From Coleofasciculus chthonoplastes F2-STO-03 (lineage in GTDB: Bacteria; Cyanobacteriota; Cyanobacteriia; Cyanobacteriales; Coleofasciculaceae): a stretch of 64,000 nt of DNA. Position 1 is the stretch's first letter. Each line of letters starts with the position of its first letter. Location: positions 21,720 to 85,719 of the forward strand of contig JAVJWO010000022.1 in NCBI GenBank assembly GCA_040222015.1. The letters are read 5' to 3'. This document shows positions 21,409-40,847 of the stretch, in pieces. A model generated the notes under the pieces. That model was not told the DNA's origin and searched no databases. It saw nothing but the letters and a program-made list of their open reading frames with translations. The position numbers and the translations under genes were made by a program.

Positions 21409-21809
21409 ATGCTGTTAGGTTTTAAAACAGAGTTAAAACTTATTTAGCCCAAAACCACAGCCGAATAGGAATAGAGGATCTTAACGTGTCTGGGATGATG
21501 GCTAATCACAAACTGGCGAAAGCTGTTCAAGACATGGGCTTTTATGAGTTCAAACGTCAGCTAGAGTACAAGTGCAAGCTGTACGGAGCAACGCTGGTTG
21601 AGGTTGACCAATGGTATCCCTCAACTAAAACCTGTTCTCGCTGTCATACCGTCAAAGATGAAATGCCTTTATCTGAGCGGGTTTTCCGGTGCGATAACTG
21701 CGGACTGGAAATTGACCGAGATTTTAACGCCTCCATTAATTTGGACAGGTTCCGCCAGTTAGGTGGTATTAGCCTGTGGACTGGTAAGGTGCCGACACCG
21801 CCAGGATGA
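21409..21809 (+). pseudogene. tnpB: tnpB pseudogene with large internal deletion
   Basis: N-terminal MLLGFKTELKL joined out of frame to YLAQNHSRIGIEDLNVSGMMANHKLA...PSTKTCSRC..FRCDNCG..DRDFNAS (RuvC II, Zn finger, RuvC III). Confidence 0.85.
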
Positions 21810-22923: not shown

Positions 22924-23352
22924 TGCAGTATCTCCGTGACTTGACAGGTTGAGCCTTCTTAAAAGCACATACACAGGGTTAGGCTTTGGCTAACCCTCTC
23001 TTGGCTCTAATAACCTCTGGTCATCCCTTAACAGGCAATATCTTCAGCTCTTGAGCTTTCCGCGCCTGTACACAAATTTCCTCATCTATTTATAAAGCTT
23101 ACATGAAGTTTCGCGAAAAAGCGATAAAGTTTCGATGAAGTTGTAGCCATTTTTTTTTATATGTGCTAATAAACACTCAATAACTAAATATATATAAATT
23201 AATCTAGCAATCTGTATACCTTGAGTGGTATATTGCCACCGAAGTATGCATACTCACTGACAAAAATCAGATCTTCAAACCGCAAAGGGAGCCAAAAGGC
23301 TCCCTAAAAACTGATCGAATTGTCCCAAGCGCCTATCTCAGCGACATTTGAC

Positions 23353-25379: not shown

Positions 25380-28300
25380 TTATGCATTCGGTGTCTGTTC
25401 CGGGAACATACATTTATCCGAATCACAACCCACGGGTCCAGCTTCGATTAATTCACCTGCATCATAGTTCTCCAAAGCTGGATAGAATTCAGGCATCTTC
25501 CGTCGCTGTTGTACCTCTTGCATCAATTGTTCATAAGTCGCTTTATCAATCGGTTCAAAGGGTAAACGGGGGAAGGATTGATGATCATCAAACCGCGCCA
25601 ATAGCGCCGCTGAAATATACCCGTCATCATCCTGAATCGCTTGATAAATCCGTTCTCCTAACGGTTCAATTTCATTAACGCGCAATTCCCAGGTGGAAGA
25701 GGTGTTGTGTGTCACATACCAGCGCTGAACTTGCATGGCAAAATCCATTTGTGCCAATGCCGAAAACTGACTGATATCAATTTCATCGGCACCGGGTAAA
25801 TCTGCCCAGGATACAGCCACGGGAATTTCCACCAACCATTCTGAACAGGCTTCAGCAAAGGGATCATTTAAGAGATTCCCATTTTCATCTTTATCCGATT
25901 GGGATGGCGTGACATTGTATCCGTAATCCAGACAAGCTAATGCTACGGGATCATTCTTTCTGAACGTAATTCGGCGAATAAATCGCTGTGCCTTAGGGGG
26001 ATGCCAACCCGGAGATGCGCCTGTAAGTAGAGATTTTGTCCCAGACGGTTGAACGGTTGTACAACGATTGGGGCGTTTAATCCCATGCTTATCGCAATAC
26101 TCCCACACCACCCGATGGACAATATCGCGCCAGCGGGTTAAATAGGCTTTTTCTTGTTCCTTAAACTGCACCCCTTCAACAGTATCTGGGCGCCCTTCTG
26201 CCCACCAGTGTAACCATTCTGCGCCAAAGGCTTTGACAAAGAAGTCAAATAGTCCGGTGAAGGATACGCCGACAATTGGGTCTAATTCCCGTGATTTTTG
26301 ATAGCGTTCCTCAACAAACTGATGGTTGAGCAAAATGGCAACGGAAAGCGCTCCCGCACTGAATGCCTCCTCTTGTTCTTTTTCGTTATTCGGATCAATT
26401 TGATTTAGGTGAATTTCGGCTAAATTACAATGGAATACGGAACCAATAATTTCACCGCAATTGTGCGCCACAATGCCATTAGCATCGAACCGAGAGACAC
26501 CTGGAACGGTGCAATCGTAAACGGGTTCGATACCAGTAGGAGACACAGATTCAACGGTGACAACAAAGCGTTCCCGATTTAGCTGACGCTGGTATCCGTT
26601 GAGTAAATTATCCAACTCTTGCTGTTTTTCCGGCTGACGGAAACCCACGCGATCGCGAAACTCAATCAGGTTGTCGTTAGCAATCACCAATTCGGGCTTT
26701 TCGGGATAATCTTCCGTGTCACTATTTTGAGAAACAGTGGAAACAATGCCTAAGCGCAGCAGCATCCGCTGTACGGCTGGCAGTAACTCAAGATTACGTT
26801 GGGCTAAACGCACGCTAATGCCTTGAGTGGGCGTTCCTTGCACGTTACCATTGGCATCAAATAACCCTTGTAGGAATCCCTGATAAAACTCGTAGCTGGC
26901 TTGTTCAACTTCCGGCGTCACTATTTTTTGACCACCATTAATATTGAACTGGGCGGCTAGTTGTTCCAGATCACTCGACGCCACTTGCTGTAAATCCGGT
27001 TGGCGAGCAGAATCACCCCCTAAATTTACAGTACAAACACCATTGTTCTGGAGGGTTGCTACTTCAGACTCTGCCATTTTGACCTGAGAGTTACCCCAGA
27101 ATCGCACTATTGCCTGAGTTTGGGCGAGTGATCCATTACTGACGAGACTCCCTAATAACCATCCTTGGGTAAATGTTCCCACACCTTGCCAAGGCTGAAT
27201 TCCTCGGTGATTGTGCAAGCAGACGCGATCGCCTCTTTTCAATTCCTCAGCCGCAACCCATTCAGTATATTGACGCTTTTGGGTTTGGGCGCTAATACGT
27301 AAAAGTTGATGGTTCCCTGTCAAACGTAGGGAAACCCCCTCTTTTGTGGCTAGGGTTAAGACAGCGCGATCGCCCGTATAGAAAAAGCCATCGGCTGTTG
27401 TGCTAAACAGTTCCCCATTAACGTAAGTTCCATGTTGTTTCCCGATTAAATCTTTAACTTGGCGGGGACCAAATTCCGTATGCACCCAAGTATCCGCCGT
27501 CACGCAGGGATTTAAGCCAAACCGCTGCAAGCGATGCTCAATTTCATCGGGTGTCAAATTCGGATACTTTTCCTGTAACCAGTGACTCGCTTTTCCTTGT
27601 TCGTAGGCTTGCAGAAACTCTTTTCTCAAGGCTTGAGTTGTTAACAAATCACAACTTGCTCGTGCTACGGCTTCTCCCGCCCATTGAATCGCACCTTCAC
27701 CAGAATAATATTGTTTGCGAACTGCTGCAATACATTCATCTAAGGTGGGTTTATGATGAAAAACACGGGAATGATTCGCCATCCTCAACGCATCACGTTC
27801 CGGATCAATCCGCCAATTTCCATGTTCATCTTGTTGCCACAGGTTATCTTTAGCATTGACAAACTTTTCATCATTACTAATCCCCTGGCGCATACCGGCA
27901 GAACGACGCACGTTTCCGGCTACAACCACAACAGCAGCTTCATCAATTAATAGACAGCATTCGACTGAATTTAATTGTCGTCCCACGGCTTTATTTAAAA
28001 TTGCCGCACATCGCTGATACAGTTCTGGTAATTTAACCGGATTTGCCACCCCGCCAAAGCCTTTTAAGGATTCTCCGGCGGGACGGATATCACTCACATT
28101 AATGGATACCTGAACTTCACCAGAAAATTGTTCATCTGCAGATAATTCCAGCAGGGTTTGATAGGACTGAACCCACCCTTGACGGGAGTCCCCGACATAA
28201 ATTTTTACCTGATTCCCATCAATTTTGACCTCAGTTTTCTCCCGCCGTTCCTCTGGTGGCGTTGTGCCAATTTCCCCCGCTAAGATTACATTTAAGTGAT

Positions 28301-28724
28301 TACGAATTGGGGGTAACTGGTTAATGTATTGGGGTTCCAAAACCGCCCCTGTGCCACATCCCATCATGGCGAGGTCCATCATTAAGCCAAAGGCACGCCA
28401 ATCTAACACATTTGTGGACGTACAATTGTAAGCGCCAGAGAAATTTTCCGGATTTTCCAGCCAATTTGTGCCTCCGACCCACAACCAGCGCCCTGAGGGT
28501 AAACTTTTAATCTGGTGCATCATCCGTTCCAGCAGGGCGGTTTCTGCGGGAGTCAGCTTACCCAGTTTGCTTAAGCCTTGGATAGTGCGATCGCACACCT
28601 CCCTCCACGTCTCTCTACCCTTGGCTGTGCGGCGGCTGTAGGTTCTGAAAAACACTGGATTTGCCGTCGATGCCGTTTCCGGAAAATCACCATTGATGCG
28701 TTTTCGCTCAAGCTCTCTTACCAT
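25380..28724 (-). CDS. nrdJ: Class II (adenosylcobalamin-dependent) ribonucleotide reductase, intein-containing
   Basis: VFFRTYSR, LPSGRWLW, YNC, GNVRRSA, NP|CGE active site split by an intein, TTVQPSGTKSLL, C-terminal GCDSDKC. Confidence 0.93.
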   Translation of the reverse strand: MVRELERKRINGDFPETASTANPVFFRTYSRRTAKGRETWREVCDRTIQGLSKLGKLTPAETALLERMMHQIKSLPSGRWLWVGGTNWLENPENFSGAYNCTSTNVLDWRAFGLMMDLAMMGCGTGAVLEPQYINQLPPIRNHLNVILAGEIGTTPPEERREKTEVKIDGNQVKIYVGDSRQGWVQSYQTLLELSADEQFSGEVQVSINVSDIRPAGESLKGFGGVANPVKLPELYQRCAAILNKAVGRQLNSVECCLLIDEAAVVVVAGNVRRSAGMRQGISNDEKFVNAKDNLWQQDEHGNWRIDPERDALRMANHSRVFHHKPTLDECIAAVRKQYYSGEGAIQWAGEAVARASCDLLTTQALRKEFLQAYEQGKASHWLQEKYPNLTPDEIEHRLQRFGLNPCVTADTWVHTEFGPRQVKDLIGKQHGTYVNGELFSTTADGFFYTGDRAVLTLATKEGVSLRLTGNHQLLRISAQTQKRQYTEWVAAEELKRGDRVCLHNHRGIQPWQGVGTFTQGWLLGSLVSNGSLAQTQAIVRFWGNSQVKMAESEVATLQNNGVCTVNLGGDSARQPDLQQVASSDLEQLAAQFNINGGQKIVTPEVEQASYEFYQGFLQGLFDANGNVQGTPTQGISVRLAQRNLELLPAVQRMLLRLGIVSTVSQNSDTEDYPEKPELVIANDNLIEFRDRVGFRQPEKQQELDNLLNGYQRQLNRERFVVTVESVSPTGIEPVYDCTVPGVSRFDANGIVAHNCGEIIGSVFHCNLAEIHLNQIDPNNEKEQEEAFSAGALSVAILLNHQFVEERYQKSRELDPIVGVSFTGLFDFFVKAFGAEWLHWWAEGRPDTVEGVQFKEQEKAYLTRWRDIVHRVVWEYCDKHGIKRPNRCTTVQPSGTKSLLTGASPGWHPPKAQRFIRRITFRKNDPVALACLDYGYNVTPSQSDKDENGNLLNDPFAEACSEWLVEIPVAVSWADLPGADEIDISQFSALAQMDFAMQVQRWYVTHNTSSTWELRVNEIEPLGERIYQAIQDDDGYISAALLARFDDHQSFPRLPFEPIDKATYEQLMQEVQQRRKMPEFYPALENYDAGELIEAGPVGCDSDKCMFPEQTPNA
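26460..27506 (-). mobile_element. 349-aa intein with degenerate LAGLIDADG endonuclease domain
   Basis: Starts CVTADT; block B LRLTGNHQL; block F VYDCTV; ends IVAHN followed by extein Cys; blocks C/E read LLGSLVSNG and FLQGLFDANG. Confidence 0.93.
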
Positions 28725-32258: not shown

Positions 32259-33071
32259 ATGAAGGAATTTTGGGCGTCTGTACTCGACTTTGCCAAAGAT
32301 ATTACCAACCATGTCGGTATCCAACTCCTGCCTGATTTTCGCTGCTGTCAGGCGTCGCAGAAAGCGGATGGGAGTTTGGTAACCCAAGCAGATCATTGGG
32401 CGGATGAGACGATTCGTCAGGCGATCGCGTCTCGGTTTCCTAGTCACGGAATCCTCAGTGAGGAAGGGGAACATCGCTTTCCAGATACAGAGTGGTGTTG
32501 GATTATCGATCCCTTAGATGGTACGACTAACTTTACCCGAGGCATTCCGATTTGGGGGATCTCTCTGGGCTTGCTGTATCATGGCACACCTGTGTTCGGA
32601 TATGTTCATTTTCCCCCCATTGGGCAATCCTTTCATGGCTTTTGGGCGGGAGAATCTGGATTACCCGATATTATCCCTGGCGCGTTTATGAATGAGTTTT
32701 CTATCCACAGTAGTCCGGATGAACTCAGTAGTAACCACTTTTTCAACCTTTGCTCTCGCAGTACCTCCCTCTTACAGCAACCCTTCCCCTGTAAAATTCG
32801 CATGTTAGGGGTTGCCAGTTATAACTTCATTACCGTTGCCACAGGAGCAGTTCTTGGCGGGATGGAAGCCACACCCAAAATTTGGGATCTTGCTGGGGCG
32901 TGGGTAATTGTCAAAGCCGCAGGTGCGGTTTGGGTGGCGTTGGCATCAGACCCAATTTTCCCGTTGAAAGTCGGTCAAGATTATGGTGGGCGATCGTTTC
33001 CCACGCTGATTGTCAGCCGTTCTGAATTAGTGGATGTGTTTAAATCGTATATCCAACAAAACCAGAATTAG
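32259..33071 (+). CDS. Inositol monophosphatase family protein
   Basis: VTQAD, LSEE, WIIDPLDGTTNF, IWDLAG. Confidence 0.92.
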   Translation: MKEFWASVLDFAKDITNHVGIQLLPDFRCCQASQKADGSLVTQADHWADETIRQAIASRFPSHGILSEEGEHRFPDTEWCWIIDPLDGTTNFTRGIPIWGISLGLLYHGTPVFGYVHFPPIGQSFHGFWAGESGLPDIIPGAFMNEFSIHSSPDELSSNHFFNLCSRSTSLLQQPFPCKIRMLGVASYNFITVATGAVLGGMEATPKIWDLAGAWVIVKAAGAVWVALASDPIFPLKVGQDYGGRSFPTLIVSRSELVDVFKSYIQQNQN

Positions 33072-33189
33072 CTCCTAGAGGTTCCAGTGGAACGTCTCTA
33101 CAAGCTCCCCCAGCTCCCCCTGCCTCCCCAGCTTCCCCTGCCTCCCCAGCTCCCCCCGCTCCCCCATCTCCCCTGAAATCTTGGCGAGA

Positions 33190-33563
33190 ACCTTGATGAT
33201 CACTCTACCGAGAGGTCATTATGGAAGCGGCAATACGTTACAGCGATCGCTCCTAGCCATTTGCTACTGTACAGATTAATCCGGCTACAGGGAAAGGGCA
33301 GATCGTGATCAGTGGTGACATCGGGACAGTTAAACCTAGCCCAAGGGTGCAACCAAACGGTACTCAAGGTAATACGGGAAGCGGCTTCTCTACCAGTAGC
33401 AGGGTATCAACGTTGAAAGGCTCACGAATAAGAGTTTTTTACGCAAGCCCCCACGATGGCGATTGCCCTCGTTACCCGCATAAAAAATAGTGGTCTGGGG
33501 GTAAGGACGGGCTAAAGCCGCTTAATTGGGTGTTTTACCTTCCCGTCCTTAGCCAGGTTTTTT
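33190..33563 (+). ncRNA. Candidate large structured non-coding RNA or long leader of unknown family
   Basis: Closing stem 33198-33204/33489-33495, GNRA-capped hairpin, long-range 8-bp pairing 33262-33269/33394-33401, terminator-like end; no credible ORF. Confidence 0.55.
33502..33563 (+). terminator. Intrinsic terminator-like hairpin
   Basis: TAAGGACGGG (33502-33511) pairs with CCCGTCCTTA (33542-33551); T6 at 33558-33563; loop is unusually long. Confidence 0.55.
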
Positions 33564-33593
33564 GAGAGTATTATGGAGCAATAGAGATTTATC

Positions 33594-34580
33594 ATGTCTT
33601 ACGAGCAAGAAAAACAGGTAGCTATTGAGGCAGCGCTGACAGCAGCCAAACTGTGTGAGCAAGTTCGCCAAGAACAGGTGACTGAAGCCATGGAAAAGAG
33701 CGATAAAAGTCCAGTCACGGTGGCGGATTTGGGTTCCCAGGCGGTTATCTGTCGAGCGTTAGCGATGGCGTTTCCTGATGACCTCGTGGTGGGCGAAGAA
33801 GATGCGTACCAGTTGCGTCAACCCGAAATGGCTGATCAACTGAATCGGGTAACGCACTACGTCAAGTCTGTCGTTGGTGATGCGACACCGGATCAGGTAT
33901 TGGACTGGATTGATCGCGGTAATAGTCAGATTGGTGGACGCTATTGGACATTAGACCCCATCGATGGCACAAAAGGGTTTCTGCGTCAAGACCAATATGC
34001 TGTGGCTTTAGCGCTAGTAGAATTGGGTGAAGTGAAACTGGGTGTTCTAGTTTGTCCCGCCTTACCCGTTTCCCCAGATCAACCTGATGGAGAAAAGGGT
34101 GTCCTATTCGTCGCGGTACGGGGTCAGGGTGCAACCATGGTTCCCCTCTCTGGCGGAGAACCTCAGCCGATTCAGGTGACAAAGGCGGATAATGCGGAAG
34201 CGATGCGTTTTGTGGAGAGTGTGGAATCCGGTCACGGGGATCATTCCCGACAGGATGCCGTTGCCAAAGCCGTAGGCATTACCGCGCCTTCGTTGCGGAT
34301 GGACTCTCAAGCTAAATATGGCGCAGTCGCGTCGGGTCGTGCATCGCTTTACCTGCGTTTGCCATCACCCAAGTCTCCAGACTATCGGGAAAAGATTTGG
34401 GATCACGCGGCGGGAACGATTGTGGTTGAGGAAGCGGGCGGACGAGTTACCGATATGCACGGGAAAGCCCTCAACTTTTCTCTGGGTGCCAAACTTTCGG
34501 ATAATCAGGGGGTTATTGTCAGCAATGGTGTGATTCACGATACCGTGCTGGATGCCTTGCGGGAAACCGCGAGCGTGTAA
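33594..34580 (+). CDS. 3'(2'),5'-bisphosphate nucleotidase (HAL2/SAL1-like)
   Basis: KSDKSPVTVAD, GEED, WTLDPIDGTKGFLR, ESVESGH, MDSQAKY, YREKIWDHAAG. Confidence 0.92.
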   Translation: MSYEQEKQVAIEAALTAAKLCEQVRQEQVTEAMEKSDKSPVTVADLGSQAVICRALAMAFPDDLVVGEEDAYQLRQPEMADQLNRVTHYVKSVVGDATPDQVLDWIDRGNSQIGGRYWTLDPIDGTKGFLRQDQYAVALALVELGEVKLGVLVCPALPVSPDQPDGEKGVLFVAVRGQGATMVPLSGGEPQPIQVTKADNAEAMRFVESVESGHGDHSRQDAVAKAVGITAPSLRMDSQAKYGAVASGRASLYLRLPSPKSPDYREKIWDHAAGTIVVEEAGGRVTDMHGKALNFSLGAKLSDNQGVIVSNGVIHDTVLDALRETASV

Positions 34581-34675: not shown

Positions 34676-35515
34676 TTAATTTTCAGCGTTTGTTTCAACA
34701 GTTGACCCAGAGCGACTAACCAACGGTTCTTCAATCAGTTGATCTAGACCTGCAAAGTTCAAGGCAGATTGCCAATTTTCTTGAACTTGAGGATCATCGG
34801 TATAATCCTGACGTAATTGAGCCAATGTACCTGCTGCGTCCATCCAGAAGCCATATTCAGCAAAAATAGCTGCCTTTTCTCGTTCTGATGCATTGGCTAA
34901 CTTTTGAGCAAGTTCGGTTTCTGGAGAAACACGCTCAACCCACCCTTCGATTGTCAAATTCCCAGAAGCATCACCCCCCTCATCACAACTAAGAGAAAAT
35001 ACCCACTGGTACTTTTCCGATTCCTTGAGTAGCTCCTCTTCCTCTGTCATCGGCTCTGGCAGAGTGAACATGACAATTCCTGGCGTTTCGTTTAGAGAAA
35101 CCATTTCGTGATAAATAATCCCTTTGTCTGGACTCAGCAATGCAAATTCTGCTTCCTTGGCTTGAGTCTCACCGACATAAACCAAGAACGTCGGATTAGG
35201 CTGTACAGTCACTTCAACTGGAACTGTGTTTTTTTCCGCAACTTCTGGTATTAAGGGTGTAACCTCGACTTCCTCTCCATAACACATACCAGAACCTCGC
35301 GAGAATCCTGGAGTTCTCCACCGAGACGCTCTAATTTTTCTGTTGCGAAATCGCAGCCCCTTATTTCCAGCGAAGAGGGTTTCCGAAGACTTCTGATCAT
35401 TGTAACTGGACGAAGTGGGTTTGAAACCAGCGATTGCCATGGCACTGGCACTCATCACTAATCCCAGAGACAACATCAGGGAAAACGTTTTTAGATAGAT
35501 AGAGGGCTTTTTCAT
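34676..35515 (-). CDS. DUF928 domain protein
   Basis: Signal peptide, GFSRG-C, PTFLVYV, PGIV, YQWVFSLSC, GWVERV, GFWMDA, W..L...GL; start placed at MKKPS. Confidence 0.85.
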   Translation of the reverse strand: MKKPSIYLKTFSLMLSLGLVMSASAMAIAGFKPTSSSYNDQKSSETLFAGNKGLRFRNRKIRASRWRTPGFSRGSGMCYGEEVEVTPLIPEVAEKNTVPVEVTVQPNPTFLVYVGETQAKEAEFALLSPDKGIIYHEMVSLNETPGIVMFTLPEPMTEEEELLKESEKYQWVFSLSCDEGGDASGNLTIEGWVERVSPETELAQKLANASEREKAAIFAEYGFWMDAAGTLAQLRQDYTDDPQVQENWQSALNFAGLDQLIEEPLVSRSGSTVETNAEN

Positions 35516-35748
35516 GTTACTTTTTGCCAATGGCAGCTCTTGAGACAAGTCTAGCCTTATTTTTATCTGTAGAGACGTTCCTCCGGAACGCCTCTAACTG
35601 GGGAAAAGAGGATCTGCTTTTCCCGGATCTACATCATTATCCTGGCAGACATTAGGATTTGGAGTTGAAATTTATAGCAGTAGACACATCGATTAGGACT
35701 TTCGGAACCATTGTAGAGACGCGCCATGGCGCGTCTCTTGTCAACCCC

Positions 35749-36612
35749 TTACTCAGGACTATTAACGGGACGTTCTGCAACGAGATTCTCTAAACCCACA
35801 GATGCAAGGAGATCTTTCCAATCCGCTTGAACTTGAGGATTATTCGGATAACGCTCTCGCAATTTCGCCAGTGAACTCACTGCCTCTGTCCAAACGCCAT
35901 GATCCACAAATACTTTCGGTTGATCAATATCTGGGGTTTTGGCTAACTCTTGCTTCAGAGACTCTTCCTTAGCAATTCGCTGCACCCAGCCTTCTGCTGT
36001 AGGATTTTGACTCCAATCATTCTGATCGCAAGGAATGGTTACAAACCAATTGTAGATTTGATCCACTTGTAACAACTCATTCTCTGGATCAGCCGGATCG
36101 GACTCTGGGATGCTAATGCTGACAATTCCGGGAGTTTGATTGTCCAGAGAAATAGTTGTTTCATAAACAACCTTATCCTTGTTTTCAGTCATCAGCGTAA
36201 ACACTGCTTCCTCAGCCTCAGTCTCGGTGATATGAACGAAGAACGTTGGAGTTTGCTCAACTGTCAGTTCAACCGGGATTTGTTCATTGGTGGACGCTTC
36301 TTGGGCATCATCTGGCAACTCCTTACTTTGAAGTTGCGGCAATAATGCTGTTACATTAACTTGTTTTTCTTGATCGCCGATTTTGCAGACTCCCCGCGAG
36401 AACCCTCCAGTTCTGCGCCGAGAAGCTCGCATTCTCCGCCGCCGGAAGCTTAGACCTTTATTCCCTGCGACTAAGGTTTCTGAAGGCTTCTGATCTGCCT
36501 GATTGGAGGAATTGGGTTTGAGACCAGCAATTGCCATGGCACTGGCACTCATTACTAATCCCACAGACAACATCAGGGAAAACGTTTTAAGATATATAGA
36601 GGGCTTTTTCAT
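35749..36612 (-). CDS. DUF928 domain protein (paralog)
   Basis: GGFSRGVC, PTFFVHI, YNWFVTIPC, GWVQRI, GVWTEA, WKDLLASVGL; AAGGAG before MKKPS. Confidence 0.85.
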   Translation of the reverse strand: MKKPSIYLKTFSLMLSVGLVMSASAMAIAGLKPNSSNQADQKPSETLVAGNKGLSFRRRRMRASRRRTGGFSRGVCKIGDQEKQVNVTALLPQLQSKELPDDAQEASTNEQIPVELTVEQTPTFFVHITETEAEEAVFTLMTENKDKVVYETTISLDNQTPGIVSISIPESDPADPENELLQVDQIYNWFVTIPCDQNDWSQNPTAEGWVQRIAKEESLKQELAKTPDIDQPKVFVDHGVWTEAVSSLAKLRERYPNNPQVQADWKDLLASVGLENLVAERPVNSPE

Positions 36613-37142
36613 TTTACTCCTTGCCAATGGCAGTAATGGATACAATTTTATTTAATTAACGCAGCAGTAGAGAGCTAGAGCGAAGTCTGTATATTCATCT
36701 AGTGTATTCATTTACAGACCGACTCCTCTCTATTCAGCAAAGTTTCCTGTTCTACCTGTCAAGTTTACGTGACGCTAAACTAGGTTACCTCATTTTTTTA
36801 TTTATAGCGACTCAGCCAAGGTGATGGGCAATCAGCCTCTTCACCGTCTCAGCTCGCTCAGTGTACAATTTAAACCCTATGACAGCAATAAACTGCCTGG
36901 GTACTATATTATATACTAATATTCTATCTGATTCGTCTGTAAACTCTAGTATCATTACAGTTCTTTAAAAAAAGTGATTAATATCTGGAGAAACTTTGAA
37001 AGTAGCTATAGTGATTTAACTTCACGTTAATTTATATTAAGTTTGATTGTCCGAATCCAAGGTTCAGAATTCAAAAAAATTCCGCCGTAACGTAGGCGTT
37101 GTCAGTGAATTAACGCTCAGGGAAACAGGAGGCAATACCAAG

Positions 37143-38843
37143 ATGATGTCTGAAATGCGTTCATTTTTCACCCAACATCCCGTAGGTAAGGGAATCATGG
37201 CATTTAGTGGCACAGTCGTTCTGACGAGTGTGGTGGTTACAGGGGTGATTGTGGGACTGCGACAGTTGGGGGGGTTAGAAGGCTTTGAACTGGATGCGTA
37301 TGACCAACTCGTGCGATCGCGTCCTGAATCTGAGCCAAGCGATCGCGTGTTAGTCGTGGGGATTAGTGAAGAGGATATCCGCAACTATAACCAGTTTCCA
37401 ATAACAGATGCCACATTAGCGACGGTACTAAAGAAACTAACAGCGTATCAACCTCGTGCGATCGGGATTGACATTGGACGGGATGTACCTATTGGCGCAG
37501 GTCGTGAGGATTTAATTCAGGTTCTTAAGCAAAACGATAACATGGTCGCCGCCTGCGTCATGAGTTCTGCAACTGAACCCGGAACACCACCCGCTCCTGG
37601 AGTTCCCCTAGAACGGGTTGGTTTTGCAGATATGCAGCTTGATCGGGATCAAGTTATCCGCCGCACGGCATTAGTTTCATTTCCTCCGTTTGTGGAACCA
37701 CTTCCAGAAAATCCCCATCTGTGCCAAGATCCCGATAACCTACTCTATTCCTTACCGTTTCAGTTAGCACTGTCATATCTGGAAGAAGAGGGAATCGAAG
37801 AAGAATTAACGACCCCAGAGGAATTCATCAAGTTGGATTCCACGATATTCCCGCCTCTAGAAGAGCAATCAGGTAACTATAGCTACACAGGTGCGTTTGA
37901 CTACCAAATCATGATCAATTGGTCAGGTGAAAATGCCATTGAGCAAGTCACCCTGACTGATGTATTAGAAGACAACATTGATCCGAATCTCGTTAGAGAC
38001 CGAGTGGTTTTGGTCGGGTACACCGCCAGCACAGCGAATGATGATTTTGCCACACCCTTTAGTGCAGCTGCCCAGGATCAAGTGTTAATGCCTGGGGTAG
38101 TCCTTCATGCTCAAGTTGTAAGTCAAATTATGACTACCGTTTTAGAGGGTCGTCCTTTAATTTGGTATTGGTCACAGGGGAGTGAAATTCTCTGGATTTT
38201 TCTCTGGTCAGTTGTTGGCGGAACCTTGGCTTGGAAAATTCGCCGTCCTTGGATTCTGCTTCCGGCTGCAATAGTAGGCAGTGGTATTTTGTATGGTATT
38301 TGCTATGCTCTATTCGTTCAGCAGTCGGGATGGATACCGTTAGTTCCGCCAGCCGTCGGCTTAGTCTTAACCACCTTTAGCGTTGTCATTATTGACCGCT
38401 ACGGTCAAGTTGTGGCAAAAACAGTTAAGAAACTGCTGAGAATCAACATTGAAATCGACGAAACTCAAAAAGAAGAGCAAGTCGCCCAAATCTTAGAAAC
38501 TGATAGCTTTCAAGAAATTCAGCTCAGAGCTGATCAACTCAGACGTCGCCGCCAAATCACCAAGCCTAAAACCTATAACAATACAGTCACGGATCAAGTA
38601 GAACTCAATTGGGAAGAAGTTCCAGAACTCGGTCAATACCAACAAGTCCTGCAACGAGCGAGAGTATTAAGACATCAGCTCAACCGGGTGGAGGTGGAAC
38701 GGGACGAGGTTGAAGATGTTGAGCAGACAACGAACGGTTCGTCCGGGAGAATGCCCACGGTTAAAAAACAAGCATTTAACCCAGAAGACGAAAGTTATCT
38801 CTCGCAATTACAAAGTCGGGGAAGACGGATGAGAAACAAATAA
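37143..38843 (+). CDS. CHASE2 sensor protein without a recognisable enzymatic output domain
   Basis: ELDAYDQLVRSRP, PRAIGIDI, VGFAD, VLVGYTA, MPGVVLHAQVVSQI, 3 TM helices, charged tail; AGGAGG before the ATG at 37143. Confidence 0.88.
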   Translation: MMSEMRSFFTQHPVGKGIMAFSGTVVLTSVVVTGVIVGLRQLGGLEGFELDAYDQLVRSRPESEPSDRVLVVGISEEDIRNYNQFPITDATLATVLKKLTAYQPRAIGIDIGRDVPIGAGREDLIQVLKQNDNMVAACVMSSATEPGTPPAPGVPLERVGFADMQLDRDQVIRRTALVSFPPFVEPLPENPHLCQDPDNLLYSLPFQLALSYLEEEGIEEELTTPEEFIKLDSTIFPPLEEQSGNYSYTGAFDYQIMINWSGENAIEQVTLTDVLEDNIDPNLVRDRVVLVGYTASTANDDFATPFSAAAQDQVLMPGVVLHAQVVSQIMTTVLEGRPLIWYWSQGSEILWIFLWSVVGGTLAWKIRRPWILLPAAIVGSGILYGICYALFVQQSGWIPLVPPAVGLVLTTFSVVIIDRYGQVVAKTVKKLLRINIEIDETQKEEQVAQILETDSFQEIQLRADQLRRRRQITKPKTYNNTVTDQVELNWEEVPELGQYQQVLQRARVLRHQLNRVEVERDEVEDVEQTTNGSSGRMPTVKKQAFNPEDESYLSQLQSRGRRMRNK

Positions 38844-38846
38844 ACG

Positions 38847-39005
38847 ATGAACCAGGAACAACGAACGATTCTCTTAAAACTTGCTGCCAAGGTATCCCAA
38901 GATCCTTTACTCTTGAGGAAAGTCAGCGATCGAGTGTATCAGCTTATGCAAGAGGATTTACGCAAGCAACGCGAACGCCATAAAAACTACAGAGGGTTAC
39001 TATAA
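38847..39005 (+). CDS. 52-aa protein coupled to the tail-tube gene (not in ORF track)
   Basis: MNQEQRTILLKLAAKVSQDPLLLRKVSDRVYQLMQEDLRKQRERHKNYRGLL; TAATG overlap with next gene; shares VYxL...RER with 39873-40847. Confidence 0.7.
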   Translation: MNQEQRTILLKLAAKVSQDPLLLRKVSDRVYQLMQEDLRKQRERHKNYRGLL

Positions 39006-39523
39006 TGGCTGACAATGGTAATATCACCCACGAACTTAACTACGTCACCGCTAATCGATTTTATATCGAAATCGAAAGTCAGATTACGGCTTCATTTAGC
39101 GAGTGTTCTGGTTTAGGAGTTCAAATTGATAAAGAAGTCTATTTTGAGGGAGGAGTCAACGAACAGCAACGCATCTTTCTCAAGCAAGCCAAATTTGATG
39201 ATGTTACCCTCAAGCGAGGGATTACCGAAGATTTAGTGTTTTGGGATTGGATTAATAAGACGCTCAATCCTGGTAAAAAAGAACGACGTAATGTCAACAT
39301 TTTGGTCTTTAACCAAGGGGGAGAAACCATGCAATGTTGGACATTAATTGGTGCGATTCCAGTCGGTTGGAAAACGCCAGCCTTACAAGCCAGTTCTAGC
39401 ACCGTGGCGATTGAGGAATTAACCCTTGCCTACGAAGGCTTAAAGGTTGTCGCTGAGCAAGGTGGCGGCGGTGCTAGTACCAATTTACAACGTGCTAACA
39501 CTGGCTATTTCCCCAGCCACTAA
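39005..39523 (+). CDS. Phage T4 gp19-like tail tube protein (contractile injection system, Afp1/5-type)
   Basis: RFYIEI, FSECSGL, EGGVN, VTLKRG, FWDW, W....AIPVGW, VAIEELTLAYEG. Confidence 0.9.
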   Translation: MADNGNITHELNYVTANRFYIEIESQITASFSECSGLGVQIDKEVYFEGGVNEQQRIFLKQAKFDDVTLKRGITEDLVFWDWINKTLNPGKKERRNVNILVFNQGGETMQCWTLIGAIPVGWKTPALQASSSTVAIEELTLAYEGLKVVAEQGGGGASTNLQRANTGYFPSH

Positions 39524-39872
39524 CTAGATCAATCGGTGGGAAAAAGTAAAGTTAACGGTGGGAATCGTCATTTGTCATTTGTCATTTGTCATTTGTAAGG
39601 GTTTGAGAAATATGGACAAAAGTTGGGTATTTCCACCCACATACTTAGAGACGTGCCATGGTACGTTTTGAAGAACAGGTTTAGGAAGAATGTCACTGAC
39701 TTAAGGCTGGTGGGTTTCGACTTCGCTCAACCCACCCTACTAGGCTACAGTATATCAAGGGTTTTGGCACTCCCTAAATGAAATGCTTATTTTAGTGCCA
39801 TTCGGTTTAGGAATGTTCGTGATAATTGTACCTCAAACTTGCTCTGAATAAATTTTAAGATTAAAAGAACTG

Positions 39873-40847
39873 ATGAAATTTTCCGAACTATCACTTGGGA
39901 TAAAAAAGCCATTACTGTCGGCTAAACCTCTGGGACAGACGCCAGGTAAATTACCCACTCTAGGGCTATTTACTAACTCAACTGTTCATAACTTAGACAT
40001 ACTTTCTTCCACGGGTAGAACTGTATTAGCGGCTATCTCTCAAACAGAGGAAAAGCAACCTGTCAGGTTGGCAGAAAATGCTCAAGCTAACGATGGCGTT
40101 GGATTGAGGAACGACACCCAAGGGTCAAGTATTCCCAGAAACCGGGTTTCTGGTGAGGATAACAACGAAATATCGGCATTTTATCCAAAGGTTAATCAAG
40201 CCAAATCCTTTCCACAACTCCCCCTGAGTTGGCAAGACTTAAACACCATAATTTCTTTAGGTCAATTTGATGGTTTAGGTTGGTCTTCTCTTCAATCTTT
40301 GCAGGTGTTAAATCTGACTCCTGAAACTTCAATCGATCAGGAATTAGGGGAATTGTCCTTAAGCAGTTCCGAGAATAATCAGAATCGTTTACTTGAGTTA
40401 AGTCTTTCACGATTGAACTCAATCTCTTTAGACAAGAGTCATTCAGATTTAAATCTAGATAGTCAATCCTCTAGTCAAACTACACCAACCTCTTGGGAGA
40501 GTTTGGCTGAATTAATTGGTGAAGATAGTTCTGTTTCTAGTCAGGATAGGGATAATGAATATATCGAAGGGTTCATGTTTACCCCAGAAGGATTTCGTCC
40601 CATTTATGCTAATCCAATAAAAACATCTGGTGATGTAGCGGATTTAATTGAAGCGGAAGCAAAAACAGTTTCTGAAACCGATCAAACTCCTAGAGTAACG
40701 GTTCAACCTTCAGTAACAGTCGTTCAACCCTCCCAATCCAGCGAATCAGAACTTGTCAGTGAATCTAATTTGCGGATGTTGGCACAAGAAGTCTACAAGT
40801 TAGTCCGACAGCGTTTGCAAATTGAGCGAGAACGTTATCGTCGTTAA
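39873..40847 (+). CDS. Hypothetical Ser-rich protein with C-terminal helix LAQEVYKLVRQRLQIERER
   Basis: 324-aa low-complexity ORF; C-terminal motif shared with 38847-39005. Confidence 0.65.
   Translation: MKFSELSLGIKKPLLSAKPLGQTPGKLPTLGLFTNSTVHNLDILSSTGRTVLAAISQTEEKQPVRLAENAQANDGVGLRNDTQGSSIPRNRVSGEDNNEISAFYPKVNQAKSFPQLPLSWQDLNTIISLGQFDGLGWSSLQSLQVLNLTPETSIDQELGELSLSSSENNQNRLLELSLSRLNSISLDKSHSDLNLDSQSSSQTTPTSWESLAELIGEDSSVSSQDRDNEYIEGFMFTPEGFRPIYANPIKTSGDVADLIEAEAKTVSETDQTPRVTVQPSVTVVQPSQSSESELVSESNLRMLAQEVYKLVRQRLQIERERYRR

Follow-up and report, generated by a model that had tools for sequence, protein, structure and literature searches.

A conserved, uncatalogued non-coding block specific to Coleofasciculus between an inositol-monophosphatase-family gene and a HAL2-type pAp phosphatase gene

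The DNA analysed here is a 64,000-nt stretch (the window) of contig JAVJWO010000022.1 from Coleofasciculus chthonoplastes F2-STO-03 (assembly GCA_040222015.1, forward-strand positions 21,720 to 85,719), and coordinates refer to this window unless a contig is named. On its plus strand, a gene encoding a 270-aa protein of the inositol monophosphatase (IMPase) family (32259..33071; PF00459, E 1e-44) is followed by a gene encoding a 328-aa HAL2-type 3′(2′),5′-bisphosphate (pAp) nucleotidase (33594..34580; TIGR01330, 331 bits with a cut-off of 267), in agreement with an earlier, sequence-only reading that had placed an undescribed RNA between two IMPase-superfamily genes. An NCBIfam search with the 270-aa upstream protein returned no model above its cut-off. 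According to PMC8268124, the substrate hydrolysed by FIG-superfamily enzymes of the pAp-phosphatase type is pAp, which sulfate assimilation yields as a by-product, and a title in the reference list of that paper describes the Arthrospira counterpart as lithium-sensitive and sodium-tolerant. A second HAL2-like paralog, 59% identical, is present in all nine genomes of the genus and in F2-STO-03 (G000) lies at G000:C172:13741-14712.

The interval between the two genes begins with a degenerate, high-copy REP-like palindrome (33072..33103; inverted repeat at 33077-33097, with 12-mers that recur as many as 141 times in the genome) and a C-rich 9-nt tandem repeat (33104..33175), neither assigned to a strand, both high-copy and strain-variable, and both outside the feature under study. 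That feature is a conserved, single-copy, non-coding block of ~390 nt (33177..33563, plus strand), found only in Coleofasciculus, whose 5′ edge is sharp at 33177, the DNA upstream being the variable repeat that differs between strains. Between the block and the HAL2 gene is a highly conserved spacer (33564..33593, plus strand; 97-100% identity) that carries a -10-like hexamer (33569-74) and a GGAG (33575-78); as had been noted, the T run at the 3′ end of the block stops 30 nt before the HAL2 ATG.

Several other features of the window can be recorded. On the minus strand, 25380-28724 holds a 1114-aa ORF with an intein-like insert of ~350 aa midway, and from its motifs we take this ORF to resemble a class II ribonucleotide reductase. 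Within 34676-38843, two similar minus-strand ORFs, the first of them a DUF928 protein, face away from a 598-aa membrane protein that resembles a CHASE2 sensor. The plus-strand ORFs of 39005-40847 are similar in appearance to a phage-tail-tube (gp19-like) gene and its neighbour, which would suggest a contractile-injection-type locus further on.

The claims that the block is non-repetitive and lacks a credible ORF are both borne out. It is single-copy in the F2-STO-03 genome, where a search for paralogs gave a best E of 0.4 for the whole and 0.046 for any segment, and its sole ORF of at least 60 aa (61 aa, 33305-33490) is broken in homologs by indels of 1, 3 and 4 nt. The best tblastn similarity, against the same genome, has an E of 0.03. 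An origin as a decayed gene or other protein-coding sequence was rejected on these grounds, since the frame-breaking indels leave no conserved frame. The proposed check against Rfam was run with the sequences of G000 and G008 and yielded no credible match at E<=10 among the 4227 families of Rfam 15, and the literature searched yielded no paper on the block. The block is real, uncatalogued, genus-specific non-coding DNA.

Homologs of the block, sought by BLASTN as had been suggested, all belong to Coleofasciculus and all occupy the same locus, in eight of eight genomes. The accompanying survey of gene context found the downstream HAL2 gene to be constant, and at this single locus action in cis would look the same as action in trans. 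Outside the genus, blastn found no homolog in 32 genomes, and in a set of 394 only 12 gave matches, of just 20-30 nt (E 0.001-0.01). A sequence-only model of the block matched none of 43 genomes of the family (G410 included) and none of 148 of the order; across the phylum, 2 of 150 genomes gave short, chance-level matches at E ~0.045, and one of the five closest genomes gave a match at E 0.04 that lies inside an 860-aa ORF. Searches of plasmids and phages returned no match, and six viral pattern scans gave 0, 4, 0, 3, 5 and 0 loci, all of them short chance matches. A metagenome pattern scan contained one real copy, at the same locus, among the 40 matches listed. Since the searches relied on exact patterns or on a first step that matches words, they may have passed over more distant homologs. 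In other genera, 3 of 20 IMPase loci surveyed (the G410 locus being left out) have the IMPase gene followed directly by the HAL2 gene (G024, G023 and G421), with spacers of 14, ~160 and ~260 nt that hold no trace of the block. Because these three relatives carry the flanking genes side by side, gain of the block in the ancestor of Coleofasciculus would be the simplest reading.

Identity of the block to F2-STO-03 is 88-98%, as against 67-86% at fourfold-degenerate sites of the flanking genes (upstream-gene values for G004 and G006 are left out because the gene is not on those loci), and this excess suggests constraint. By the standard of other intergenic DNA, the block is less conspicuous: its identity to G008 is 0.87, within the range of 0.74-0.95 seen in 11 further intergenic alignments to G008, most of them of unique DNA. 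Intergenic regions giving any 200-nt alignment numbered 16 of 35, 12 of 21 and 10 of 38 in three comparisons, and the conservation of the block (87-89%) is ordinary for the alignable intergenic DNA of Coleofasciculus. The block thus falls in the conserved share of intergenic DNA and is not exceptional there.

Near the 5′ edge of the block is a candidate sigma-70-type promoter (33193..33222, plus strand), with a -35 element at 33193-98, an 18-nt spacer and a -10 element at 33217-22. It agrees with the sigma-70 consensus, the general one that also underlies the call at 33569-74, at 8 of 12 positions, and it is the only site of at least 8/12, on either strand, that is kept in all nine homologs. 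A site of this quality kept throughout also occurs in 7% of 300 shuffled alignments, and 33193-33222 falls below the 9/12 threshold of the promoter scan. An RNA from this site would start near 33229, and the candidate promoter overlaps a hairpin at 33191-33224. The 5′ part of the RNA as originally drawn (33193-33222) may be promoter rather than transcript and, if the promoter is real, the closing stem and the tetraloop hairpin of that drawing would be promoter DNA. The -10-like hexamer at 33569-74, invariant in nine of nine homologs, could drive the HAL2 gene alone, without the block. A start from this hexamer (~33581) would omit the GGAG, which other genera also have before the HAL2 gene, about as far from its start codon; a transcript containing the GGAG would have to start upstream of 33575. 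Part of the block is contained in 10 RNA-labelled sequencing runs, four of which were examined for depth. In two of these (X3 and X4), depth is flat across genes and block (440/461 and 361/252, respectively) and contigs reach 78 kb, a DNA-like pattern and thus uninformative on transcription; in the other two (X9 and X10; depth 2-5.5, too shallow to count), only pieces of the HAL2 gene occur, one of them from 33568, and the block is uncovered.

The sequence-only reading had assembled the block into one large RNA closed by a long-range stem and tied by a pseudoknot. Every pairing that it had picked out by eye is present in the sequence at the coordinates given, but the helices fare poorly in homologs. 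Pairing in the closing stem amounts to 80%, three of its pairs being disrupted in 3-5 sequences, and G008 has lost the 3′ strand of this stem; a T/A-rich stem is 84% paired; and the CCTAGCC stem has one pair broken in four of nine. In the proposed 8-bp pseudoknot (33262-69/33394-401), the pair 33265-33398 is C-A in four of nine, and 33264-33399 is broken at one more sequence-position. A perfect inverted match of at least 8 bp arises in 53% of 300 shuffles, and a long-range one in 46%, so the match is by itself no evidence of a pseudoknot. Four such perfect matches, the number in F2-STO-03, are reached in only 1% of shuffles, and G008 also has four, G007 only one. The first strand of the pseudoknot (33262..33269, plus strand) has a better-fitting alternative partner at 33310-33317, which is 98.6% paired with two one-sided changes and shows G-U/G-C exchanges. 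The switch-like pairing proposed between GCCCCC and GGGGGT is half lost in G008.

Covariation does not rescue this architecture. The whole model is 93.2% paired against 92.9% in shuffled alignments (90 of 500 shuffles doing as well), and for the minimum-energy fold of F2-STO-03, 242 of 500 shuffles are equal or better, in tests on nine sequences of ~89% identity that have little power either way. The structure conservation index (SCI), 0.76, is below the mean identity of 0.88, and the long-range fold differs from homolog to homolog. With key helices broken in homologs, covariation no better than in shuffles and long-range folds that disagree, the large-RNA model is unsupported; what survives of the sequence-only reading is a conserved, uncatalogued non-coding block with plus-strand hairpins. 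Two further elements were considered and rejected: a terminal 5′/3′ stem (33180-87/33550-57) is broken at two pairs in 3-4 of nine homologs, and an internal direct repeat (33223/33377) is of a kind, a 9-mer, that recurs in 15-16% of shuffles.

Comparison with known RNAs likewise provides no family for the block. A likeness to domain 1 of group IIC introns (Bacillales, RF02001 region) consists of three short words in similar order and one 19-nt stretch that aligns, whereas the block has no domain V, no RF02001 match and no intron ORF, and profile scores are insignificant. A pattern inspired by these introns found 35 loci, 29 Bacillales and 5 Coleofasciculus among them, and RF02001 matched six of the eight loci checked. 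A profile of 17 introns, taken from 30 loci after leaving out 12 (11 short, 1 from Mollicutes) and one duplicate, gave the block no hit at E<=5 in F2-STO-03 and a best E of 0.38 on the nine homologs, and a group IIC origin was rejected. Domain V (RF00029) has 20 matches in four genomes, none at the block; in two genomes of the genus, a domain V-like match stands beside CRISPR-DR5 repeats (L107:459-612 and L110:1209-1578).

An orphan guide scaffold, another of the earlier suggestions, finds neither a scaffold partner nor a mobile-element family. HEARO/omega-RNA (RF02033) has 35 matches in F2-STO-03, none of them at the block, and a profile of 24 of these 35 copies gave no block hit at E<=10. 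In common with IS200/IS605 RNAs, the block has one exact 17-mer that recurs in a TnpB-like element present in three copies, at the right end of that element, whereas no nuclease gene lies near it, its flanks are phosphatases and it is single-copy; the 17-mer is at chance level (227 of 1000 shuffles), and a TnpB right-end origin was rejected. The three right ends of the TnpB-like element are on contigs C30, C56 and C213. Nor is the block a cobalamin riboswitch (RF00174; 12 matches in four genomes at E<=10, none at the block), RNase P RNA (RF00010; the true gene is on contig C130, at 259 bits) or tmRNA (one elsewhere in the genome and none in the window), and 6S RNA, SRP RNA and group I introns gave no block match at E<=10 among the 4227 Rfam families. 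A sub-threshold match of ~190 nt to the cobalamin model (21-28 bits) recurs in four of four genomes (L228, at G000:C117:46330-46520, L229, L231 and L233) and is possibly a variant riboswitch, and a weak match to the RNase P model (20.7 bits, E 5e-4) lies just outside the window, at G000:C22:20995-21081.

The folding signal of the block is local and favours the plus strand. Single-sequence folding is modest in F2-STO-03 (z -2.0 on the plus strand, -1.7 on the minus) and, in six of the nine homologs, plus-strand z-scores run from -1.1 to -2.6, or from +0.15 to -2.2 without the 3′ hairpin. Consensus folding is strand-biased, with a core z of -4.5 on the plus strand (0 of 40 shuffles) versus -0.6 on the minus strand (9 of 40); homolog and consensus scores used six or seven of the nine sequences, and column shuffles do not keep dinucleotides, which inflates z. 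Without the promoter-overlapping hairpin (33229 on, 3′ hairpin excluded), the core z is -2.1, and 33229-33563 with the 3′ hairpin reaches -3.8 on the plus strand (0 of 35 shuffles). Among control intergenic regions, five of seven attain z <=-2 on one strand (14 shuffles each). Two unique intergenic regions of the window have minus-strand consensus scores of their own, -5.8 at 22951-23324 (G000:C22:44670-45043) and -3.3 at 36681-37054 (G000:C22:58400-58773), again with 14 shuffles. Substitutions are significantly depleted in the stems of one of three folds (38 of 81, against an expectation of 49; p 0.007) but not in those of the other two (p 0.17 and 0.43), and of the changes that do fall within stems, roughly two thirds break the pair.

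Only local hairpins recur across homologs. Three of these, on the plus strand at 33323-42, 33345-65 and 33368-94, have mean pair probabilities over nine homologs of 0.63, 0.48 and 0.59-0.71, respectively, and the stretch that they span (33323-33394) is nearly invariant, which makes a covariation test impossible there. Two small plus-strand hairpins follow at 33453-72 and 33476-93; the second is deleted in G008 and shows two both-sided changes, the only notable ones in the block, within one clade and in a structure picked after the alignment had been viewed. A hand-picked local model is equalled in 3 of 500 shuffles, but its choice of structure is circular. The block ends in a 3′ hairpin (33500..33563, plus strand) with a 10-12-bp base, a 30-42-nt interior and an imperfect T run. 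Its 10-bp base is paired in nine of nine homologs, its three one-sided changes all give G-U on the plus strand, and its alignment z is -4.9 on that strand (0 of 150 shuffles). It had been described as terminator-like, yet a terminator scan makes no call here: the stem encloses a loop of 30 nt, the T run begins only after a gap of 3 nt, and the run is interrupted in three of nine homologs.

Several readings of the block can be weighed against these results. It is rather unlikely that the block encodes a standalone, genus-specific sRNA of ~335 nt that acts in trans, with its promoter at 33193-33222, its end at 33558-63 and a separate promoter for the HAL2 gene at 33569-74. The promoter-like site and the hairpin with its T run do bracket the block, a separate invariant -10-like hexamer lies downstream, the HAL2 gene is expressed in relatives without the block, and 33229-33563 folds at z -3.8 on the plus strand (0 of 35), but one constant locus makes cis and trans indistinguishable, the terminator is poor (T run interrupted in three of nine), homologs outside Coleofasciculus were not found in the genomes searched, and there is no stable global fold. 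It also seems fairly improbable that the block consists of long-decayed mobile fragments, REP-like or of other kinds, clustered together and fixed in the genus, which are transcribed by read-through and contribute at most a passive stabilisation of mRNA. Gain as a block beside recent repeats would fit such an origin, as would conservation that is ordinary for intergenic DNA. The F2-STO-03 genome contains hundreds of copies of a GTAG/GTCG-ended REP family of 63-64 nt, and PMC3733652 describes GTAG REPs in cyanobacteria and gene-adjacent MITEs that fold and influence expression. The 3′ hairpin arms are 2 and 3 mismatches from REPs of this GTAG type, and there is a weak alignment of 33328-33393 with a REP copy, its score exceeding that of 95 of 100 shuffles and being reached by 5, in a comparison made post hoc after many looks. 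Unlike these REPs, however, the block is single-copy and genus-fixed, with no paralog in F2-STO-03 (best E 0.4, best segment 0.046); the class of 2 plus 3 mismatches is at null level (69 versus 66), REP profiles either miss the block or score it at E>=0.065, and identity exceeds that of fourfold sites.

A conditional attenuator is distinctly unlikely. In this scheme, a candidate anti-terminator at 33374..33387 (plus strand), whose sequence complements two parts of the 3′ hairpin, namely its loop (33515-23) and its 3′ arm (33542-46), would pair with both, and a ligand, an ion or a protein would in this way switch the read-through that reaches the pAp phosphatase gene. Like riboswitch and attenuator leaders, the block precedes a metabolic gene and allows a pairing exclusive with its 3′ hairpin to be drawn: two nested helices of 5 and 9 bp, with 13 of 14 pairs invariant in nine of nine homologs, are better conserved than GCCCCC/GGGGGT, the loop 8-mer is invariant where the remaining loop varies and includes a 12-nt insertion, and the two forms are within ~4 kcal/mol in five of nine homologs. 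Such invariant pairs nevertheless carry no structural information, as 500 of 500 shuffles are equal; the motif is near-palindromic and also folds back on itself, and in eight of nine homologs the form with the 3′ hairpin is the more stable one, by 1.2-20.4 kcal/mol. Further unlike those leaders, the block has no Rfam score, no covariation and a weak terminator, and it was not found outside the genus, even before the closest orthologs that were checked there, whereas known riboswitch classes generally occur across many genera. A fuller version, a young, genus-restricted RNA switch in which a ~335-nt leader from ~33229 has 33374-33387 invade the 3′ hairpin and pAp/PAPS or Na+/Li+ set the read-through, is very unlikely. 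Least likely of all would be a large RNA whose tertiary fold includes the closing stem and the pseudoknot, whether ribozyme-like or serving as an orphan guide scaffold (such as domain 1 of a domesticated group IIC intron, or an omega-RNA). Short words that follow one another as they do in group IIC introns of Bacillales and the four perfect matches of at least 8 bp in both G000 and G008 point toward it; against it, the intron pattern had been designed with that intron in mind, the 17-intron profile fails to score the block, domain V, RF02001 and HEARO are without a match at the locus, homologs disrupt both the closing stem and the pseudoknot, and SCI is below mean identity.

The block is genus-restricted, single-copy, non-coding and conserved, and its plus-strand folding bias comes from local hairpins. 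The most likely interpretation, advanced tentatively, is a genus-specific promoter plus a hairpin leader of ~335 nt with a leaky 3′ end before the gene for the HAL2-type pAp phosphatase. Lineage-specific structured 5′ leaders and intercistronic stem-loops exist in cyanobacteria, and the block resembles them in being an extended, conserved stretch of non-coding DNA that precedes a metabolic gene and contains local hairpins and a promoter-like site, differing in its absence from Rfam 15 and its restriction to one genus. On this interpretation, the Coleofasciculus ancestor gained a regulatory intergenic block between the IMPase-family and HAL2-type genes, whose sigma-70-type promoter at 33193-33222 would start an RNA near 33229 that folds into a row of hairpins, each independent of the others. 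The last of these, at the 3′ end, might then behave together with the imperfect U run as a leaky terminator, a pause or a barrier to 3′ exonucleases, yielding a ~335-nt leader RNA and a read-through phosphatase mRNA, and the leader could determine how abundant and how stable this mRNA is, with neither a ligand nor a tertiary fold involved. Counted in favour of this leader are the same locus in eight of eight genomes, with the gene pair adjacent and block-free at 3 of 20 other loci; a conserved promoter-like site on the plus strand exactly at the 5′ end, with variable repeat upstream; strand-biased folding, G-U-only changes in the 3′ stem and recurring local hairpins; and the position of the GGAG and identity above fourfold sites. 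Counted against it are a promoter of just 8/12 that 7% of shuffled alignments can match, the second -10-like hexamer at 33569-74, intergenic identity that is ordinary, control regions of which five of seven also reach z <=-2 on one strand, the inflation of z by column shuffling, a core z of -2.1 once the promoter hairpin is removed, and stem avoidance in only one of three folds.

If the block is a plain promoter plus leader, it would be one more lineage-specific untranslated region, of small weight in itself, yet still a clean example of how two genes that used to be neighbours were parted by the gain of a ~390-nt regulatory block. Were the switch true, pAp/PAPS or salt would constitute a ligand class without a riboswitch in Rfam, and this in a cyanobacterium of hypersaline mats. 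Either a switch or a standalone RNA would amount to an uncatalogued regulatory RNA, linked to a pAp phosphatase, in the organism that dominates the construction of marine microbial mats, and would exemplify a regulatory RNA that arose within one genus.
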